Below are positions 31,295-39,403 of a DNA stretch of 64,000 bases, one piece after another. The notes under the pieces were generated by a model, which was not told the origin of the DNA, did no database searches, and saw only the letters and a list, made by a program, of their open reading frames with translations. The position numbers and the translations under genes were made by a program. The stretch comes from a virus. The stretch is from IMG/VR virus record IMGVR_UViG_3300035703_000034, positions 42,381 through 106,380 of that record. One strand, given 5' to 3'. Within the stretch, counting starts at the first letter, position 1. Each line of letters starts with the position of its first letter.

Positions 31295-31636
31295 ATGGCC
31301 AACAAAGACACGCGAGACACGGTCAGACAATTCCTCGCGGCCCGCAAGCTCTACCGGAAGCAGCTGGAGCAGAAGCTGTTCCCGGCATACACCAGTGTGG
31401 TAACACCCGCGCTCCATAATACTACCAAACTGGTAAGCGCGGCAAAGAAAACCAGCGACCCGATGCTTCAGGCCATCGAGCAGCAGGCCATGGACCTGAT
31501 GCTGGCCTCCCAGCGGGCCGTCGACCTGCGCAAGAAGACCTTCAGGAACTACGTGAACGAGTCACGCGCCGGCAGGATCCACTATGATTTCTACGAGGAC
31601 GCGCGGCAGCAGCGCTACGAGAGGGGGGTGCTCTGA
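31295..31636 (+). CDS. Hypothetical protein
   Basis: GGAGG SD; coupled to gp25-like gene. Confidence 0.55.
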   Translation: MANKDTRDTVRQFLAARKLYRKQLEQKLFPAYTSVVTPALHNTTKLVSAAKKTSDPMLQAIEQQAMDLMLASQRAVDLRKKTFRNYVNESRAGRIHYDFYEDARQQRYERGVL

Positions 31637-32088
31637 TGGCGACCTTCGGGTTCTCCGCGGGGGCGTTCAAGACCCTGGAGCCCGGCACGTACCAGATCGA
31701 CCTGGCGCGCGGCTTTGCCGAGGCGCGCTTCGCGTCGGACATGGAGAAGCTGGCCTTCGAGGTGTGCTACGGCCTGATGACGACGCGGGGCAGCATCCCG
31801 TTCGACCCCACGTTCGGGAGCCTGCTGCCGGTCGCCATCGGGCAGTACGCGAGCAACGAGGTCGCGGAGCTGCAGGCGTTCGTCGCCGGTGAGATTGCCC
31901 ACGTCGAGGCGATGATTAAGGAGAGGCAGGCGTCTGCCGTGCTGCCGGCCGCCCAGCGGCTGGAGGCGCTGGACGCGGTCGAGGTGCGGGTCCGGCCGGC
32001 GGAGCAGCAAGTCGACGTCCTGCTCACCATCACCAACGGGCTGGGCGAGTCGGTGGGGTTCTCGGTGTCTCAAGCGGTGGACAGCTAG
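31636..32088 (+). CDS. Baseplate wedge subunit, gp25/gpW-like
   Basis: LMTTRGSIPFDPTFGSLL motif. Confidence 0.8.
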   Translation: MATFGFSAGAFKTLEPGTYQIDLARGFAEARFASDMEKLAFEVCYGLMTTRGSIPFDPTFGSLLPVAIGQYASNEVAELQAFVAGEIAHVEAMIKERQASAVLPAAQRLEALDAVEVRVRPAEQQVDVLLTITNGLGESVGFSVSQAVDS

Positions 32089-32091
32089 GTC

Positions 32092-33564
32092 ATGGCGGTC
32101 ACGGAAACGATTCTTCAGCAGGCGGAGACCTTCATCGTCACCGCCATCACCGAGGCCTTCGCGGCCGAGGGCGACAGCATTGACCTGCGGCCGGGCACGC
32201 CGCAGTACGACCTGTTTGTGCGCGGCTTCCTCGCCGTGGTCGCGCAGATCGTCGACCAGCTGCAGCAGGCCCAGCGCAAGGTGACGGCGCTGTCGGCCAC
32301 GGAGCTGACGGACGCGGAGCTCGCGGCGCTCGGGGCGCGCTTCGGCGTGAGCCGGCGCGTGGGCGCGACCGCCCAGGGCACGGTGCGCGTGAAGTTCCGC
32401 GAGCGGGTGGCCGTCACGCTGACGACGAGCGACGCCTTTCTGGCCGGGGACCAGACCTACTACCCGACCGAGGACGTCGCGCTGCTGGCCGACGAGCTGA
32501 CGCAAGAACCTGTCTTGAACTACTGGTACGTCAACGTGCCGCTGATGGCGGCCACCAACGGGACGGCCAGCAACACGGGGGCCGGCACGGCCTTCACGTG
32601 CGCCAAGCTCGCGGGCGACCCCGCGCTCATCGAGGCGGTGGCGATCACGCCGCTGTCGGGCGGCCTGGACCAGGAGGACGCGACGGCCTACTTCGACCGG
32701 TTGCAGGCCGCCCCCTTGATCCGAAACCTGGTGAGCCGCAAGTCGATCGACGCGGTGCTGATGGGCGAGTTCGCGGGCGTCATCGAGCGGCTGCTGGTGG
32801 TGGGCTACCAGGAGCCCGAGATGCAGCGCGATCGCCTCGAGGTCGTCGACCCCGTGCTCGGCCCGATGACCATGCACGTGGGCGGGCACACGGACATCTA
32901 CGTCAAGACGCCCATCCGGCGCGAGACGGTGGAGTTCACGGTCTCGCCCGGCAACTACGTGATCGACCTCACGGACTACCGCGCGGTGCTGAAGGTCCAC
33001 AACGTGACCCTCAAGGGGAACGGCGACGTCAGCCCGTACTTCGAGCTGCGCGTGGCCGACCCGGCGCTGCGCTACTCGGCACTCGACACCGTGCAGCTGT
33101 TCGTCGACCCCGGCCTCTCCGAGGAGACCATCCAGGTCGACCTCTCGTACGCGCCGGACGTCGTGAGCATCCATGCGTACGTCAACGGCGACGAGCAGCG
33201 CATCACGAACGCCAACACGCTCGTGCGCCACTTCGTGCCCGTCTGGCTCGGGGCCGTCATCTACGTGGCGGGCGACGACGCCGCGATCGCGCAGGCGAAC
33301 GGCAACATCGCGGCCTACCTGGACGGCCTCGCCAACGGCGCGCCCGTCGTCGTCAGCAAGCTGACGGAGGCCATCTACCAGGGCGGGGCGCTGAACGTGC
33401 TGCAGGACTACGACCTCATCGCCCAGATCATCTACAACGACGGCACGTTGCTCGAGCGCACGGCGGACGAGGTGCTGACGATTGCGGACGACCTGCCCAA
33501 GGGCTTCTCGCAGCGGGTGGCGACCTACCTGAACGAGGGCGTGACCCTCGTGCAGCTGGGGTAG
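32092..33564 (+). CDS. Baseplate J/gp6-like protein
   Basis: DLRPGT..YDL; R..GATAQGTV; GGLDQEDATAYFDRL; GGHTDIYV. Confidence 0.8.
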   Translation: MAVTETILQQAETFIVTAITEAFAAEGDSIDLRPGTPQYDLFVRGFLAVVAQIVDQLQQAQRKVTALSATELTDAELAALGARFGVSRRVGATAQGTVRVKFRERVAVTLTTSDAFLAGDQTYYPTEDVALLADELTQEPVLNYWYVNVPLMAATNGTASNTGAGTAFTCAKLAGDPALIEAVAITPLSGGLDQEDATAYFDRLQAAPLIRNLVSRKSIDAVLMGEFAGVIERLLVVGYQEPEMQRDRLEVVDPVLGPMTMHVGGHTDIYVKTPIRRETVEFTVSPGNYVIDLTDYRAVLKVHNVTLKGNGDVSPYFELRVADPALRYSALDTVQLFVDPGLSEETIQVDLSYAPDVVSIHAYVNGDEQRITNANTLVRHFVPVWLGAVIYVAGDDAAIAQANGNIAAYLDGLANGAPVVVSKLTEAIYQGGALNVLQDYDLIAQIIYNDGTLLERTADEVLTIADDLPKGFSQRVATYLNEGVTLVQLG

Positions 33565-33950: not shown

Positions 33951-34370
33951 ATGAACCCCTATTTCGCCTATATATCTATGAAGGCCGCTTCTGACTTTTC
34001 AGACGCGCTGGACCTTTACGTGGTGGCCCACGACGCCCCGCTGAGCGAGCACATGCGCGCCCAGAACCGGGGCTACATCCCGCTGCACATGCTGAAGGAC
34101 AAGGGGCGCGACAGTCACCTCGTCTACGTGCACCGGATGAGCTACAACCCGGCGATGCACCTGAAGTCGGCCGACCCAGCAAAGTTCCACGCCCTGGTGC
34201 GCACGCACCTGGGCGGCCCCCCGGTCGTCGTGCCCGCCGCCCCGGCGGCCCTCCCCCCACCCCCCGGGGTGGGGGTGGCCCCGGGTGGGCAGACCGCTGT
34301 GGCGGTCCCCCCGGTGCCCGTGAAGCCGGTGGTTCCGGTTGCACCCCCTCCCCCGGGGGTGGGGGGCTAA
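33951..34370 (+). CDS. Hypothetical protein with Pro-rich C-terminus
   Basis: ORF ends the structural block; KAAS motif. Confidence 0.5.
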   Translation: MNPYFAYISMKAASDFSDALDLYVVAHDAPLSEHMRAQNRGYIPLHMLKDKGRDSHLVYVHRMSYNPAMHLKSADPAKFHALVRTHLGGPPVVVPAAPAALPPPPGVGVAPGGQTAVAVPPVPVKPVVPVAPPPPGVGG

Positions 34371-34400
34371 AAAAGACCCCCGAAACCCCTATATATACTT

Positions 34401-34962
34401 GACCCCCACATTAGCCCTTGAACAAAGGCTGGTGTGGGGTTCTTGGTTTGAGTCGGGCCTGCAGCCCGGCGTCCGTGGAAACGGAAGGCTCGCTGTGCGA
34501 GGCCGGCGAGGGTGCCATACGGACGGCACCCGTTGACCCGGTCTTTCAGAGTTAAGGGGAACCTCGCCACTGTTTGGTCAGGCGAGGCTGCGAGAATGAC
34601 CACCCCACCGTCCCGGCTTTGGGACGTTAAGCGGATACGCGACCGCGAAGGCCTGTCCCCTCGGGGGCAGAAGACTGGCATTCCCGAACCGGCCCCACGG
34701 ATGGGTGGGCCGGCTGCCAGACACATCTAGGGAGCTGCCGGGGTTTCCCGGCCCATGTCCCGCAAGCGACCACCTCTCCGTGGTGCGGGATAGTAACGTG
34801 CGGAGCGCTCCGCACGGCTGACGGTCGCAAGCCCCTATCGCGTGGGCAGTACGCGAGAGGTCTGGTCACGTGGACAGGCATCACGTGACGAACCCGACGC
34901 AGGGGTTGCCTGCGCACGTTCCCCACCCGCCCCCGGTCCGCTCTTGCGGCCGGGGGCTTTTT
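34401..34962 (+). ncRNA. Candidate large structured non-coding RNA (~560 nt)
   Basis: No credible ORF; about 15 back-to-back hairpins with G-U pairs on the + strand; upstream TATATA/TATACT; ends in an intrinsic terminator. Confidence 0.6.
34929..34962 (+). terminator. Intrinsic terminator
   Basis: GCCCCCGGtCCGC-TCTT-GCGGCCGGGGGC followed by T5. Confidence 0.8.
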
Positions 34963-34987
34963 GCGGTTCCGACCGCAGGAGGTTCAA

Positions 34988-35206
34988 ATGGACGGGCTTC
35001 AACTGCAAAAGGAACTGGAAGAGTTCGCCGAAGGACACGCCCAGCTCGAATTTGCAATTAACAAGATCAAGATCGGTTACAACGAGCAGCGCCTTCTGGC
35101 GCGACTCGACGCCGAGCAGGCGGCGACCGAGGCCGCCGGCGAGGCCGGGCGGCTGGAGTGCCGCTTGGCCGGCGGCCGCGTGGCCCCGGCCCCTCTGGCG
35201 GACTGA
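34988..35206 (+). CDS. Small hypothetical protein
   Basis: AGGAGG SD preceded by UNCG hairpin. Confidence 0.6.
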   Translation: MDGLQLQKELEEFAEGHAQLEFAINKIKIGYNEQRLLARLDAEQAATEAAGEAGRLECRLAGGRVAPAPLAD

Positions 35207-35317
35207 AGTCCGCCAGAGGCCCGCTCCGCAGAAGGAAAACTGCGTAACAAACCCGCCCCAGCCGGGCGTGACCGGGGACCCGCAAGGGCGAGACCGGAGG
35301 CGCGTTGGTATCAAAAA

Positions 35318-35378
35318 CTGACATCCAGGCTGCGTTAGCCTGCTGATGATGGCCCCGTCGCGGGGGCCGAAATGTCAG
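35318..35378 (+). ncRNA. Type III hammerhead ribozyme
   Basis: Stem III CUGACAU/AUGUCAG; cleavage triplet AUC; stem I CAGGCU/AGCCUG; CUGAUGA core plus extra U; stem II GGCCCC/GGGGCC; GAAA. Confidence 0.9.
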
Positions 35379-35435
35379 AAGTCTCGTGCTGTTTCGACGG
35401 CACGCAGAGGGCTGAAGGCCCGGGGAGAAAAGACC

Positions 35436-35795
35436 GTGAAGACCACGAATCGAGCGGAAGACCTGTACCAGGCGGGACAGTATCTGGGAACGATCACTGT
35501 CGTCGAGGGCAAGGAGGTAATCCTCCAGCCCTGGACCTACCGCCTCCGCTACGGCGGGGGCAAGCACGAGATCTCGTACGCCGTGAAGCGGGAGACAATT
35601 CCCGTCCTCCGGTGGGACGGCGACGTCATCGGGCGCAAGCCCACGGGCGTCGTGCAGGGGGTCTACCCCTTCGGGCCAGACTACGTCTCGGGCGGCCGGG
35701 CCCGTCTAGAGGAGCTCCTGGCGGCCCCCGAGACCCACGACCAGGAGTGCTACTGCCACTTGCACAAGGGCGCGGAGCGCTTGCTGAGGGTCTAG
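35436..35795 (+). CDS. Hypothetical protein downstream of hammerhead
   Basis: GGAG SD then GTG (MKTTNRAEDL); normal codon usage. Confidence 0.6.
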   Translation: MKTTNRAEDLYQAGQYLGTITVVEGKEVILQPWTYRLRYGGGKHEISYAVKRETIPVLRWDGDVIGRKPTGVVQGVYPFGPDYVSGGRARLEELLAAPETHDQECYCHLHKGAERLLRV

Positions 35796-35987
35796 CCAAC
35801 CGCCCGGCGACACGCACAGGTCCAGCCGTCTACCCGAGAAGGGCACAGACAGACGGCCCTCGTGCGTGTCGCCACCTCAACCCAGCCGGGGGTCAAGCCG
35901 GCGCGTCGGAAGTGGTCATGTCCGACGTCCCCAGTGTCAGGGGTTTGATGACACTATCACCTGCCGCTACGGCGGCAAGGAGGTCTG

Positions 35988-36473
35988 ATGAAGACCGAAT
36001 CCATGGGCGCCCCCCTGCACGGCGTGTGCCCGTCGGACCCCGAAGGGGTCTACCTCGGCCGCGCCACCTGGTGCGGGGTCGAGGTGGACCTCTGGTTCTG
36101 GGCCACGGCCTGGGACCGGGGGTCCATCGGGTACCGCCACGGCACCCGGGGGGACGAGTACGGGTCGATGCCCGTGCGCGGCCTCCAGGAGGCCGAGATG
36201 AGCCAGGCGCTGAAGGCCACCCCGGCCTTCGAGGCCTTCTGCCTGAAGATCAACAGGCAGAAGTCGGTCCTTGGCGAGGGCTACGTCCTCGCCGAGGGCA
36301 CCGTCTGGCGGAAGGCTCTCACGGCCGCCCGCCAGACGGGCCTGATCACGGAGCTGTCGCTCCAGGAGTCGGCGGACTTCTGGGCGGCCGGCGTGCTCCA
36401 GTGGGATGACCCCACCGGAGCGTCGCTGCGCTCGGCTTACGCCGAGGCGCGTTCCGCGATCGCAAGCCTGTAG
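35988..36473 (+). CDS. Hypothetical protein
   Basis: AAGGAGG SD preceded by C(UACG)G hairpin. Confidence 0.7.
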   Translation: MKTESMGAPLHGVCPSDPEGVYLGRATWCGVEVDLWFWATAWDRGSIGYRHGTRGDEYGSMPVRGLQEAEMSQALKATPAFEAFCLKINRQKSVLGEGYVLAEGTVWRKALTAARQTGLITELSLQESADFWAAGVLQWDDPTGASLRSAYAEARSAIASL

Positions 36474-36646
36474 GAACCCCCGCGCCGTGACGGCGCGTGA
36501 GTGGGGAGCTGTGCCGAACCCATAAGGCACGGTGAGCCCACACGTCGCAAACAGGCCGTAGGGGCGCCTGGTCAAGTCCGACGAAGCCCCAACGGACCCT
36601 CACCCGCGCGTGAGGGGGACTGGCCCCCCAATGGGCCGAGGTCAAC

Positions 36647-36823
36647 GTGGCGAGCACGCGCCTCGTCCTCCGTGACGGAGCCATCAAGCTCCTCACGGAG
36701 GACGGCGTGCTGTTCGACCTTCCGGTCAACCGGAAGGGCGAGTTGCCGCTCGGCGGCAACACGGACGCGCAGCTGCGCGTCCTCCGCCCGCTCCGGGACA
36801 CCGGGCGGGTCGAACAGCAATAG
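36647..36823 (+). CDS. 58-aa ORF embedded in a multibranch RNA structure (MASTRLVLRDGAIKLL...)
   Basis: GAGG SD then GTG; protein-like codon use; below ORF-track length cutoff. Confidence 0.45.
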   Translation: MASTRLVLRDGAIKLLTEDGVLFDLPVNRKGELPLGGNTDAQLRVLRPLRDTGRVEQQ

Positions 36824-36923
36824 GTTCATCCCTCTCCCTGGGGGCAAGCAGGGCGTCAGCGCGGGAAGCATACGACAACGCGCCAACCCGTACGGCCACG
36901 CCGTACAAACCAAACACAACGCT

Positions 36924-37015
36924 CACCCTCCAAGGTGGGACGTGTTTGTTTCACATCTCTTCACTCCATTGCGAGTGATCAGATGTGAAGCAGACGCGTC
37001 CCACCTTGGAGGGTG
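36924..37015 (+). repeat. 35-bp inverted repeat (long RNA hairpin)
   Basis: Arms 36924-36958 and 36981-37015; the three mismatches are all G-U on the + strand. Confidence 0.9.
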
Positions 37016-37099
37016 TGGATTACCGTTGCTTTTCCTTTAGCCCCGCTGAGCGTTCAGCCGGGGCGCAGTTGCCGTTCCGACGGCAGAAAGGAGTCCGAC

Positions 37100-37606
37100 G
37101 TGGACATCCTCCAGAACAACCCCACCACCTGGTCCAAGTGGACCTCGGTCGTCCTGACCACCGGCGTGCCGGGCGCCGGCAAAAGCACCCTCGCCGCCCG
37201 GCTCGTGGCCGAGTTCGGCTACGAGCAGCTGGAGCTCGACGAGCTCCGGGCCGAGCTCGGCGACCGGGCCGACCAGTCCCTCACCCCGGCCGCCGTCGCG
37301 CTGCGCGACGAGCGGCTCGCGGCGGCCATCGCGGCGGGTCGCAAGGTCGTCGTGAGCGACACCAACGCCCACTTCCCGTTCCGGGTGGCGCTCATCCGGG
37401 ACATCCTCAGTCTCGGCGTCCCGGCGGACGAGATCGCCATCGTCCACTTCAACGCGGACGTGGACGAGGCCAAGCGCCGCAACCGGGGGCGCGCCAGCGA
37501 GGTGCCCGAGGCGGTCATCGACCGGATGGCCGCGGCGCTCGAGGCCGCGCAGCCCTCGCTGGACGCGGAGCTCTACGGGCTCCAGTACCACGAGACGGAG
37601 CTCTAA
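37100..37606 (+). CDS. P-loop kinase (AAA_33/polynucleotide kinase-like)
   Basis: GVPGAGKST Walker A; VVVSDTN; RNRGR lid; AAAGGAG SD. Confidence 0.85.
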   Translation: MDILQNNPTTWSKWTSVVLTTGVPGAGKSTLAARLVAEFGYEQLELDELRAELGDRADQSLTPAAVALRDERLAAAIAAGRKVVVSDTNAHFPFRVALIRDILSLGVPADEIAIVHFNADVDEAKRRNRGRASEVPEAVIDRMAAALEAAQPSLDAELYGLQYHETEL

Positions 37607-37609
37607 GCC

Positions 37610-37918
37610 ATGAGCAACGTCGAGAAGGCTCGCCGCGAGCACCAGGGCGACAACCTCCTGGCCCTGCTGGCGGCGGGCCTGAAGCTCGGTCAGGTCGCGG
37701 CCGTGTCCGACGTCCCCGGCTGGGCGGCGATCCACGGCGCGATCACCGTGGTCGTCCCCAGGACGTTCGGCCCCCGCCTCGTCGTCCTCGCCGTGGACGA
37801 CTACGGCAGGGTCCGGGAGGTCGCCCGCCACGACCACCCGGAGACGGTCTCCCAGGAGGACCTCCGCGAGATGGCGGAGGACTTCCTCGCCGACCAGGTG
37901 GCCCACCACGCCTGGTAG
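37610..37918 (+). CDS. Hypothetical protein
   Basis: ORF in operon. Confidence 0.6.
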   Translation: MSNVEKARREHQGDNLLALLAAGLKLGQVAAVSDVPGWAAIHGAITVVVPRTFGPRLVVLAVDDYGRVREVARHDHPETVSQEDLREMAEDFLADQVAHHAW

Positions 37919-38731: not shown

Positions 38732-39403
38732 ATGATCGAGATCAAGAACTCCCGCGGCCACGTGCTGCACACGGTCGACGCCGACACGCTCATCGGGGCG
38801 GACTTGTCGGGCCTCGACCTGACGGACGCCAACCTGCGCGGCGCGGACCTCAGCCACGCCAAGCTCGTGAAGACCAACCTCAGCTACGCGTGCCTGGAAA
38901 ACGCGGACTTCAACAGCGCCGAGTTGGATGAGACGCAGTTCGACGGTGCGGACTTGCGCGCGGCGAACTTCCGGACGCGGAACACAGATGCCAGCTACCG
39001 AGGTGACCGGACAGGAATCGAAGCCGTGTCGTTTATAGACGCGGACCTGCGGAACGCCAACTTCTGCAAGTGCGAGATTTTCTGGTCTTCGTTCTACGAT
39101 GCCGACCTGCGGGGCGCCCACTTCAAAGACGCCGAGTTCTTCGGTGACGACATGGAGTTCGCCTTCGCCGATGCGCGCAACGCAGACTTCAGCTTTGCAA
39201 CATTCAACAATGTACAGCTTAAAGGCGAAGGCGAGGACGACGGCCTTCCGTATCTCTGTGGCGCGGACTTCACCGAAGCCTCCTTCCTTGAGTCGTTCAT
39301 CGACGCACACCTTGATGGTGCAAACTTCATGCGCGCCCGCTTGGCTCGTGCCACGTTCAGCCCGTACGTTCAAGAACAGCTGAACGAGACAGTGCGGCGC
39401 TAA
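38732..39403 (+). CDS. Pentapeptide repeat protein
   Basis: A[DN][LF]xx repeats. Confidence 0.9.
   Translation: MIEIKNSRGHVLHTVDADTLIGADLSGLDLTDANLRGADLSHAKLVKTNLSYACLENADFNSAELDETQFDGADLRAANFRTRNTDASYRGDRTGIEAVSFIDADLRNANFCKCEIFWSSFYDADLRGAHFKDAEFFGDDMEFAFADARNADFSFATFNNVQLKGEGEDDGLPYLCGADFTEASFLESFIDAHLDGANFMRARLARATFSPYVQEQLNETVRR

Follow-up and report, generated by a model that had tools for sequence, protein, structure and literature searches.

Evidence for a type III hammerhead ribozyme with an inserted core U between two small genes of an uncultured tailed phage

The 229-nt gap between two small orphan genes, ORF72 and ORF119, of an uncultured tailed phage contains a 61-nt element (35318-35378, + strand) that is, with a probability of roughly 0.8, a genuine cis-acting type III hammerhead ribozyme of a phage sub-type carrying an extra U in its core. 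The element lies in a window of 64,000 nt, the whole stretch of DNA analyzed here, which corresponds to bases 42381-106380 of IMGVR_UViG_3300035703_000034, a linear, GC-rich and hairpin-rich IMG/VR record of 106 kb that is ~51% complete. Knowledge of self-cleaving ribozymes located between small genes of phages dates back to 2011, and their role is still unproven. The locus described here is an ordinary example of this known arrangement and leaves knowledge of the ribozyme class unchanged; it adds one clean example from a phage lineage without sequenced relatives. Its interest is modest, and lies in an apparent blind spot of Rfam for insertions between positions 9 and 10.1, in the rare AUC triplet and in the bracketing of one ORF by an HDV-like element and a hammerhead.

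Anatomy of the hammerhead and its departure from chance

The sequence-only reading of this DNA had placed all hammerhead core elements, in order, at 35318-35378 on the + strand, and inspection of the sequence bears this out base for base. The parts of the element are the following.

35318-35378 (+): complete type III hammerhead, 61 nt, intergenic, on the coding strand, read directly from the sequence
35318-35324 (+): 5' arm of stem III, CUGACAU, paired with 35372-35378 in the MFE structure; U35324 is U16.1
35325 (+): C17, last base of the AUC triplet
35325-35326 (+): predicted cleavage site, between C17 and C1.1, from hammerhead numbering
35326-35331/35337-35342 (+): stem I hairpin, CAGGCU/AGCCUG, 6 bp, loop GCGUU
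35343-35349 (+): core strand C3-A9, CUGAUGA, aligned with the invariant CUGAUGA of covariance model R1 (see below)
35350 (+): extra U between A9 and G10.1
35351-35356/35363-35368 (+): stem II, GGCCCC/GGGGCC, 6 bp, loop GUCGCG; G10.1-C11.1 is G35351-C35368
35369-35371 (+): core G12, A13 and A14
35372-35378 (+): 3' arm of stem III, AUGUCAG; A35372 is A15.1 and pairs with U35324

Stems III, II and I comprise 7, 6 and 6-7 bp, respectively, with stem III open and stems I and II closed by loops; the seventh pair of stem I is a possible G.U, which leaves a CGU loop. The invariant core is intact (C3 U4 G5 A6 U7 G8 A9, G12 A13 A14, A15.1-U16.1, C17 and G10.1-C11.1), and the assignment to type III made in the sequence-only reading is sustained both by these positions and by the independent covariance model. 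The one departure from the strict consensus, in which G10.1-C11.1 directly follows A9 with no insertion, is the intervening U35350. At minimum free energy, the predicted structure of the 61-nt RNA coincides exactly with the three-way junction (-29.5 kcal/mol, z = -3.0), and the junction is retained in the MFE structure of the 251-nt intergenic context. In the centroid fold of that context a competitor is found, in which CUGAU of the core pairs with GUCAG of the 3' arm and U35350 pairs with G12. The further proposal that GCG of loop I pairs with CGC of loop II holds as far as complementarity goes (3 bp) but not in terms of significance, as 6% of loop shuffles reach the same value. Some related type III hammerheads present loop-loop complementarity of 3-4 bp, and loop-loop pseudoknots are frequent in hammerheads (PMC3088659). 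The complementarity seen here is only suggestive of a loop I-loop II contact, a feature needed for fast cleavage at low Mg2+.

A descriptor covering hammerhead types I, II and III and allowing 0-1 nt after A9 was run on the 106-kb record, where its only match was the element at 35318-35378. In dinucleotide shuffles of the record, matches were obtained in 8 of 200 replicates when at least 3 bp per stem were required and in 0 of 200 at a minimum of 4 bp per stem. Family membership was assessed with a covariance model (R1) built from seven inserted-base type III hammerheads of other phage contigs, the window sequence being excluded. The seed of R1 is a hand-checked subset of 7 sequences in which the pairing was verified by hand; MAFFT alignments, whether of type III hammerheads or of the HDV-like sequences described below, were set aside as not structure-consistent. 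In the window, R1 matches 35321-35375 at 39.4 bits (rough E-value 5.8e-10), with a runner-up at 13.9 bits. When R1 is run on 0.92 Mb, true type III hammerheads outside the seed score 28-41 bits, and type I hammerheads yield only partial matches of 26 bits or less. A covariance search with hammerhead models had been put forward as a check on the sequence-only reading; with our own model the element falls within the range of true members, whereas the Rfam hammerhead models report nothing even at E<=10. The sequence, fold, non-randomness and family membership of the hammerhead are thus direct observations.

The Rfam result was obtained at several levels of stringency. At gathering thresholds, the whole window gives zero matches to Rfam; no hammerhead match is returned by the Rfam hammerhead families at E<=10 in 35200-35500 or by RF00008 on the whole record, and the element does not reach the RF00008 threshold (48.5 bits). 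As a control, RF00008 was applied to type III hammerheads of other phage contigs. Both insertion-free instances were reported (L014, 53.6 bits; L093, 37.9 bits), versus, at E<=1, one of five inserted-base instances (32.9 bits). The inserted-base hammerheads left unreported by RF00008 are L064:3902-3955, L081:1018-1073, L017:3009-3066 and L106:2808-2866. The failure of RF00008 on inserted-base hammerheads appears to be a systematic gap in what the library covers, and the silence of Rfam at 35318-35378 is possibly due to the extra core U. Because the same library missed most insertion-bearing phage hammerheads, this silence was not counted against the hammerhead.

The inserted U and the AUC triplet among phage hammerheads

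Scanning for CUGAUGA-N-GGCCCC...GGGGCC-GAAA identified three further hammerheads, all intergenic, of type I and with an extra U at this site, none of which is reported by Rfam. A type I hammerhead with the extra U has, ~400 nt away and on the same strand, a twister-P1-like match (L004:356-407, - strand) scoring 58 bits versus a gathering score of 67.2. A wider scan of phage contigs for CUGAUGA-N-GG...CC-GAAA returned at least 118 loci. Among the matches listed, those with T after CUGAUGA include 41 complete one-base-insertion hammerheads in 59 (35 of type I and 6 of type III), compared to 4 of 25 for A and 2 of 22 for C. On these counts, which refer to the matches listed, the base inserted in phage hammerheads is usually U. 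An inserted nucleotide at this site also has precedents elsewhere. De la Pena & Flores 2001, as summarized in PMC3705267, describe an extra A10 at the insertion site of CChMVd(+), with the A10U variant active at a rate 3-4 fold higher, and in Penelope-element hammerheads the nucleotide between 9 and 10.1 is conserved (PMC4209133). The earlier statement that natural active hammerheads can carry an extra nucleotide after A9 therefore finds support both in CChMVd (PMC3705267) and in the prevalence of U in the phage survey. Since the extra U is apparently common and Rfam misses most insertion-bearing hammerheads, counts of phage hammerheads based on Rfam may be too low.

The cleavage triplet is the second unusual feature. 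Among 58 distinct phage hammerheads in the matches listed, the triplet is GUC in 51 and AUC in none, so that the AUC read at 35323-35325 is atypical for this group. AUC is essentially absent from natural hammerheads; it supports very fast cleavage post-transcriptionally and is the least efficient of the triplets during transcription, an inefficiency that has been ascribed to metastable folds (Carbonell et al., PMC1636495). The competing CUGAU/GUCAG pairing predicted in the centroid fold is of the metastable kind described for AUC.

Gene neighborhood, the upstream HDV-like element and the proposed cleavage

The hammerhead is found downstream of baseplate genes, among small genes that share their direction. 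The features of the region, several of which were delimited on a GC3 frame plot, are listed below.

31636-33564 (+): Baseplate-wedge/W-like and Baseplate_J genes; the genes downstream share their direction
34370: end of a structural gene (GC3 frame plot)
34371-34987: stretch of ~600 nt without coding signal (GC3 frame plot)
34929-34962 (+): terminator-like GC hairpin followed by UUUUU (stem listed at 34940-34957), between the HDV-like element and ORF72
34988-35206 (+): ORF72, 72 aa, orphan, with a coding-type GC frame signal (GC3 frame plot)
35381-35435 (+): remainder of the ORF119 leader, with two hairpins and then a Shine-Dalgarno-like GGGGAGA before the GTG at 35436
35436-35795 (+): ORF119, 119 aa, orphan, GTG start at 35436, clear GC3 coding signal
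35988-36473, 36647-36823, 37013-37606 and 37610-37918: further small genes judged real (GC3 frame plot)

No protein family was matched by ORF72 or ORF119. A search of ORF119 against 5.8 billion proteins returned ORF119 itself as the sole match, and neither ORF has a relative in the viral contigs searched. The 1.07-kb region has a single 41-nt match to GenBank phages, at chance level, and no relatives of the baseplate J protein were found among phages and viral contigs. These searches point to a phage lineage without relatives among the GenBank phages or IMG/VR sequences that they could reach. No orthologous locus of the hammerhead was found by the ORF, nucleotide or baseplate J searches, and hence there is no covariation to draw on at the hammerhead locus itself. 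Further along, the accessory-gene array encodes a 223-aa pentapeptide-repeat protein (38732-39403, + strand; Pfam E-value 1.5e-27), and a very long, near-perfect hairpin at 36916-37023 (+) scores 46 bits against a plant miRNA-precursor model, purely as a hairpin. Only hairpin-type miRNA matches, and no other ribozyme class, were found in the structured gaps 35780-37030 and 34360-34780.

When the window was scanned permissively with Rfam, the sole ribozyme match was to RF02682 (HDV-F-prausnitzii), at 34757-34828 on the + strand, an element absent from the sequence-only reading. Its score (30.6 bits; E-value 0.097 over the whole window and 4.6e-4 over the local region) is below the gathering threshold of 44 bits. 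The parts of this candidate are as follows.

34757-34828 (+): candidate HDV-like ribozyme, 0.56 kb upstream of the hammerhead, from the RF02682 match and a part-by-part comparison
34757-63 / 34785-91 (+): P1, 7 bp, with G at position 1
34766-71 / 34823-28 (+): P2, 6 bp, GCGACC/GGUCGC, perfectly paired
34772-74 / 34782-84 (+): P3, 3 bp, ACC/GGU
34797-34816 (+): P4 hairpin, 8 bp, with a closing C-G
Joiners and loop: J1/2 AA, L3 UCUCCGU, J1/4 AGUAA and J4/2 GCUGAC

The pseudoknot formed by P2 is complete, though P2 is absent from the RF02682 model. A pattern scan of viral contigs for HDV-like ribozymes identified 82 sites, of which 13 have a perfect 7-bp P1 together with a P2 of 5-8 bp; among these 13 the P1 and P2 sequences vary and the pairing is kept. 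The element of the window is colinear, part by part, with these 13 complete instances from other phage contigs, and its nested double pseudoknot has the same order and lengths as in the 13 reference ribozymes. Its J4/2 (GCUGAC) is that of L176, and its J1/4 is AGUAA, versus AGAAA in one phage HDV-like subgroup. Within the window, CCUCUNCGUGG occurs exactly only once, inside this element, and the P3-L3 block CCUCUCCGUGG likewise has its only exact match there. In the 106-kb record, a structure-only HDV descriptor returned 8 matches, of which seven, GC-rich pairings within genes, were evidently spurious. This descriptor is unspecific in this genome and was consequently given no weight, the agreement in sequence plus structure with the 13 references being used instead. 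Sub-threshold matches to RF02682 in ribozyme arrays are credible, given that two HDV-like members of an array in another phage contig (L174, see below) score 34.3 and 28.1 bits against this model, also below threshold. Judged by its sequence and layout, the HDV-like element at 34757-34828 is probably real. By position, its catalytic C is presumed to be C34818, and cleavage is expected just 5' of G34757. A tRNA-trailing, 'theta'-type arrangement was ruled out for this element, as the window has no tRNAs.

Directly upstream of the predicted HDV-like cleavage site are ~360 nt without coding signal (34395-34756, + strand). Their predicted fold is far more stable than that of shuffled sequences (z -3.6; none of 100 shuffles equal), and no Rfam family was matched in this segment. 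The HDV-like ribozyme could set the 3' end of an RNA made from it.

The strong terminator-like hairpin 5' of ORF72 is followed directly by another small hairpin and the ORF72 ribosome site (AGGAGG). Owing to the terminator-like hairpin, expression of ORF72 would need read-through or an unseen promoter, and the two ribozymes may share a read-through transcript or be on separate ones. No terminator-like site was detected on the + strand in the interval from ORF72 to the hammerhead, which makes co-transcription of ORF72 and ORF119 plausible, and the mechanism proposed here takes this co-transcription as its starting point. A transcript running through ORF72 into ORF119 would fold while it is being made: the 5' arm of stem III would emerge first, followed by hairpin I, the CUGAUGA strand, hairpin II and GAAA, and the 3' arm of stem III would close the junction last. 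Hammerheads cleave by attack of the C17 2'-OH on the neighboring phosphate, producing a 2',3'-cyclic phosphate and a 5'-OH. Here the 2'-OH of C35325 would attack its own 3' phosphate. The RNA on the ORF72 side would end in ...CUGACAUC with a 2',3'-cyclic phosphate and keep only the 7-nt 5' arm of stem III, and the RNA on the ORF119 side would start at C35326 with a 5'-OH. The leader of about 110 nt previously attributed to ORF119 agrees with the coordinates, 35326-35435 being 110 nt. Owing to the type III topology, this leader would hold almost the whole ribozyme, with its two GC hairpins, in addition to the two hairpins that follow.

To 5'-end-dependent RNases, a structured 5'-OH terminus offers poor access. 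For this reason, the ORF119 message would most likely be separated from that of ORF72 and probably stabilized relative to it. The likely effect is that the fates of the two messages are set apart, each having its own stability and translation. Both cleavage in vivo and its consequences for expression are projected here from the sequence; uncoupling of transcripts is the standard role proposed for phage hammerheads (PMC3088659, PMC6765202).

Other explanations of the locus are conceivable. A mere resemblance, with GC-rich hairpins happening to flank CUGAUGA and GAAA, might be entertained in a GC-rich, hairpin-rich genome where most of the 8 matches of the structure-only HDV descriptor are plainly spurious and where Rfam has no hammerhead match. 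It is nonetheless already very unlikely, considering that none of the 200 shuffles reaches 4 bp per stem against the 7/6/7 bp observed, that the independent model gives 39.4 bits versus 13.9 bits for the second-best locus, and that the site is intergenic, in sense orientation and close to another ribozyme. Alternatively, the element could be a hammerhead by origin whose cleavage in vivo is slow or absent, either a decaying relic or a set of hairpins now serving only as a structured leader; the causes would be its AUC triplet, the competing pairing and a tertiary contact that is only suggestive. This would fit the 0 of 58 phage hammerheads with AUC among the matches listed, the standing of AUC as the poorest triplet for co-transcriptional cleavage (PMC1636495), the alternative pairing in the centroid fold, the non-significant loop-loop pairing and the suggestion by Perreault et al. 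(PMC3088659) that some phage hammerheads may be non-functional. However, an unselected relic would be expected to lose some of the invariant core bases or stems, all of which are intact here; the MFE structure in context is the active fold, and AUC ranks among the fastest triplets post-transcriptionally (PMC1636495). On balance, we regard a slow or inactive hammerhead as unlikely.

The geometry of the locus also allows for the HDV-like ribozyme and the hammerhead to act as a pair that excises a 569-nt RNA (34757-35325) carrying ORF72, with a 5'-OH at one end and a 2',3'-cyclic phosphate at the other. RtcB ligases join 5'-OH and 2',3'-cyclic phosphate ends, and a host RtcB-type ligase could circularize or re-ligate the excised RNA; further processing by other enzymes is also conceivable. 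In favor of such a pair, the two ribozymes flank ORF72 on the same strand, their predicted ends are of the type joined by RtcB ligases, and Perreault et al. (PMC3088659) considered circular products possible. In addition, a P-loop kinase resembling polynucleotide kinase is encoded 1.6 kb downstream (37013-37606, + strand; 197 aa; Pfam AAA_33, E-value 4e-21). Among proteins of known structure, it is closest to the kinase domain of polynucleotide kinase/phosphatase (E-value 5e-5) and to seryl-tRNA(Sec) kinase, and bacterial Pnkp is matched weakly. The position of such a kinase near two predicted sources of 5'-OH ends is suggestive, and it might act on those ends. Against excision, a search by Perreault et al. 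(PMC3088659) for spliced or circularized RNA was negative, neither RtcB nor either of two RNA-ligase families could be detected in the 106-kb record, which is ~51% complete (the PF09511 control matched nowhere), and the terminator-like hairpin stands between the HDV-like element and ORF72. With no support beyond geometry, excision by the ribozyme pair is distinctly improbable, and separation of the ORF72 and ORF119 messages by a cis-acting type III hammerhead is the reading that we prefer. An HDV-like ribozyme and a type III hammerhead around one orphan ORF make up a construct of ~0.7 kb in which message splitting can be set against the production of ligatable ends.

Comparison with known systems

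As in the hammerheads reported from other phages and in the clustered hammerheads of prophages (Perreault et al. 2011, PMC3088659; PMC6155905), the element occupies an intergenic site in sense orientation, with small non-conserved ORFs on either side. It also shares with the prophage clusters (PMC3088659) a consensus core, a second self-cleaving ribozyme nearby and the presumed role, namely the division of long phage transcripts into messages of single genes. With the HDV-like element upstream, ORF72 is bracketed by two ribozymes, like the ORFs of the published prophage clusters. The locus differs from those clusters (PMC3088659) in that a single hammerhead is present and its partner is an HDV-like ribozyme, and in that the hammerhead has a U after A9 and an AUC triplet instead of GUC.

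Compared to Rfam family RF00008 (Hammerhead_3), the hammerhead of the window has the same topology and invariant core and similar stem and loop sizes, but it is below the gathering score and absent from the results at E<=10. One extra nucleotide between A9 and G10.1 is shared with the A10U variant of CChMVd(+), in which U is active and faster than A (PMC3705267), and with the Penelope-element hammerheads (PMC4209133). Those hammerheads belong to a viroid and to eukaryotic retroelements, respectively, whereas the one described here would be in the mRNA leader of a dsDNA phage.

The HDV-like element at 34757-34828 has in common with RF02682 (HDV-F-prausnitzii) the nested double pseudoknot of P1, P2, P3 and P4, the CCUCUNCGUGG P3-L3 block, the G at position 1 of P1 and the GCU(A/G)A joiner with the presumed catalytic C. 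It departs from that family in its score (30.6 bits, below 44), in its J1/4 (AGUAA, not AGGCAA) and in its location, 160 nt from the next ORF and with a terminator-like hairpin in between.

In the L174 array (IMGVR_UViG_3300033551_000003; L174:700-5230, + strand), ~9 hammerheads of type II are found together with two HDV-like ribozymes within 5.3 kb, and each of them sets off a small ORF. As in the window, HDV-like ribozymes and hammerheads alternate with small ORFs on one strand; L174 differs in having ~10 ribozymes in 5.3 kb and hammerheads of type II, compared to two ribozymes and longer spacers in the window. HDV-like and hammerhead classes do therefore co-occur in phage arrays, and by analogy the locus described here can be viewed as a small version of the ribozyme-and-small-ORF arrays of prophages.
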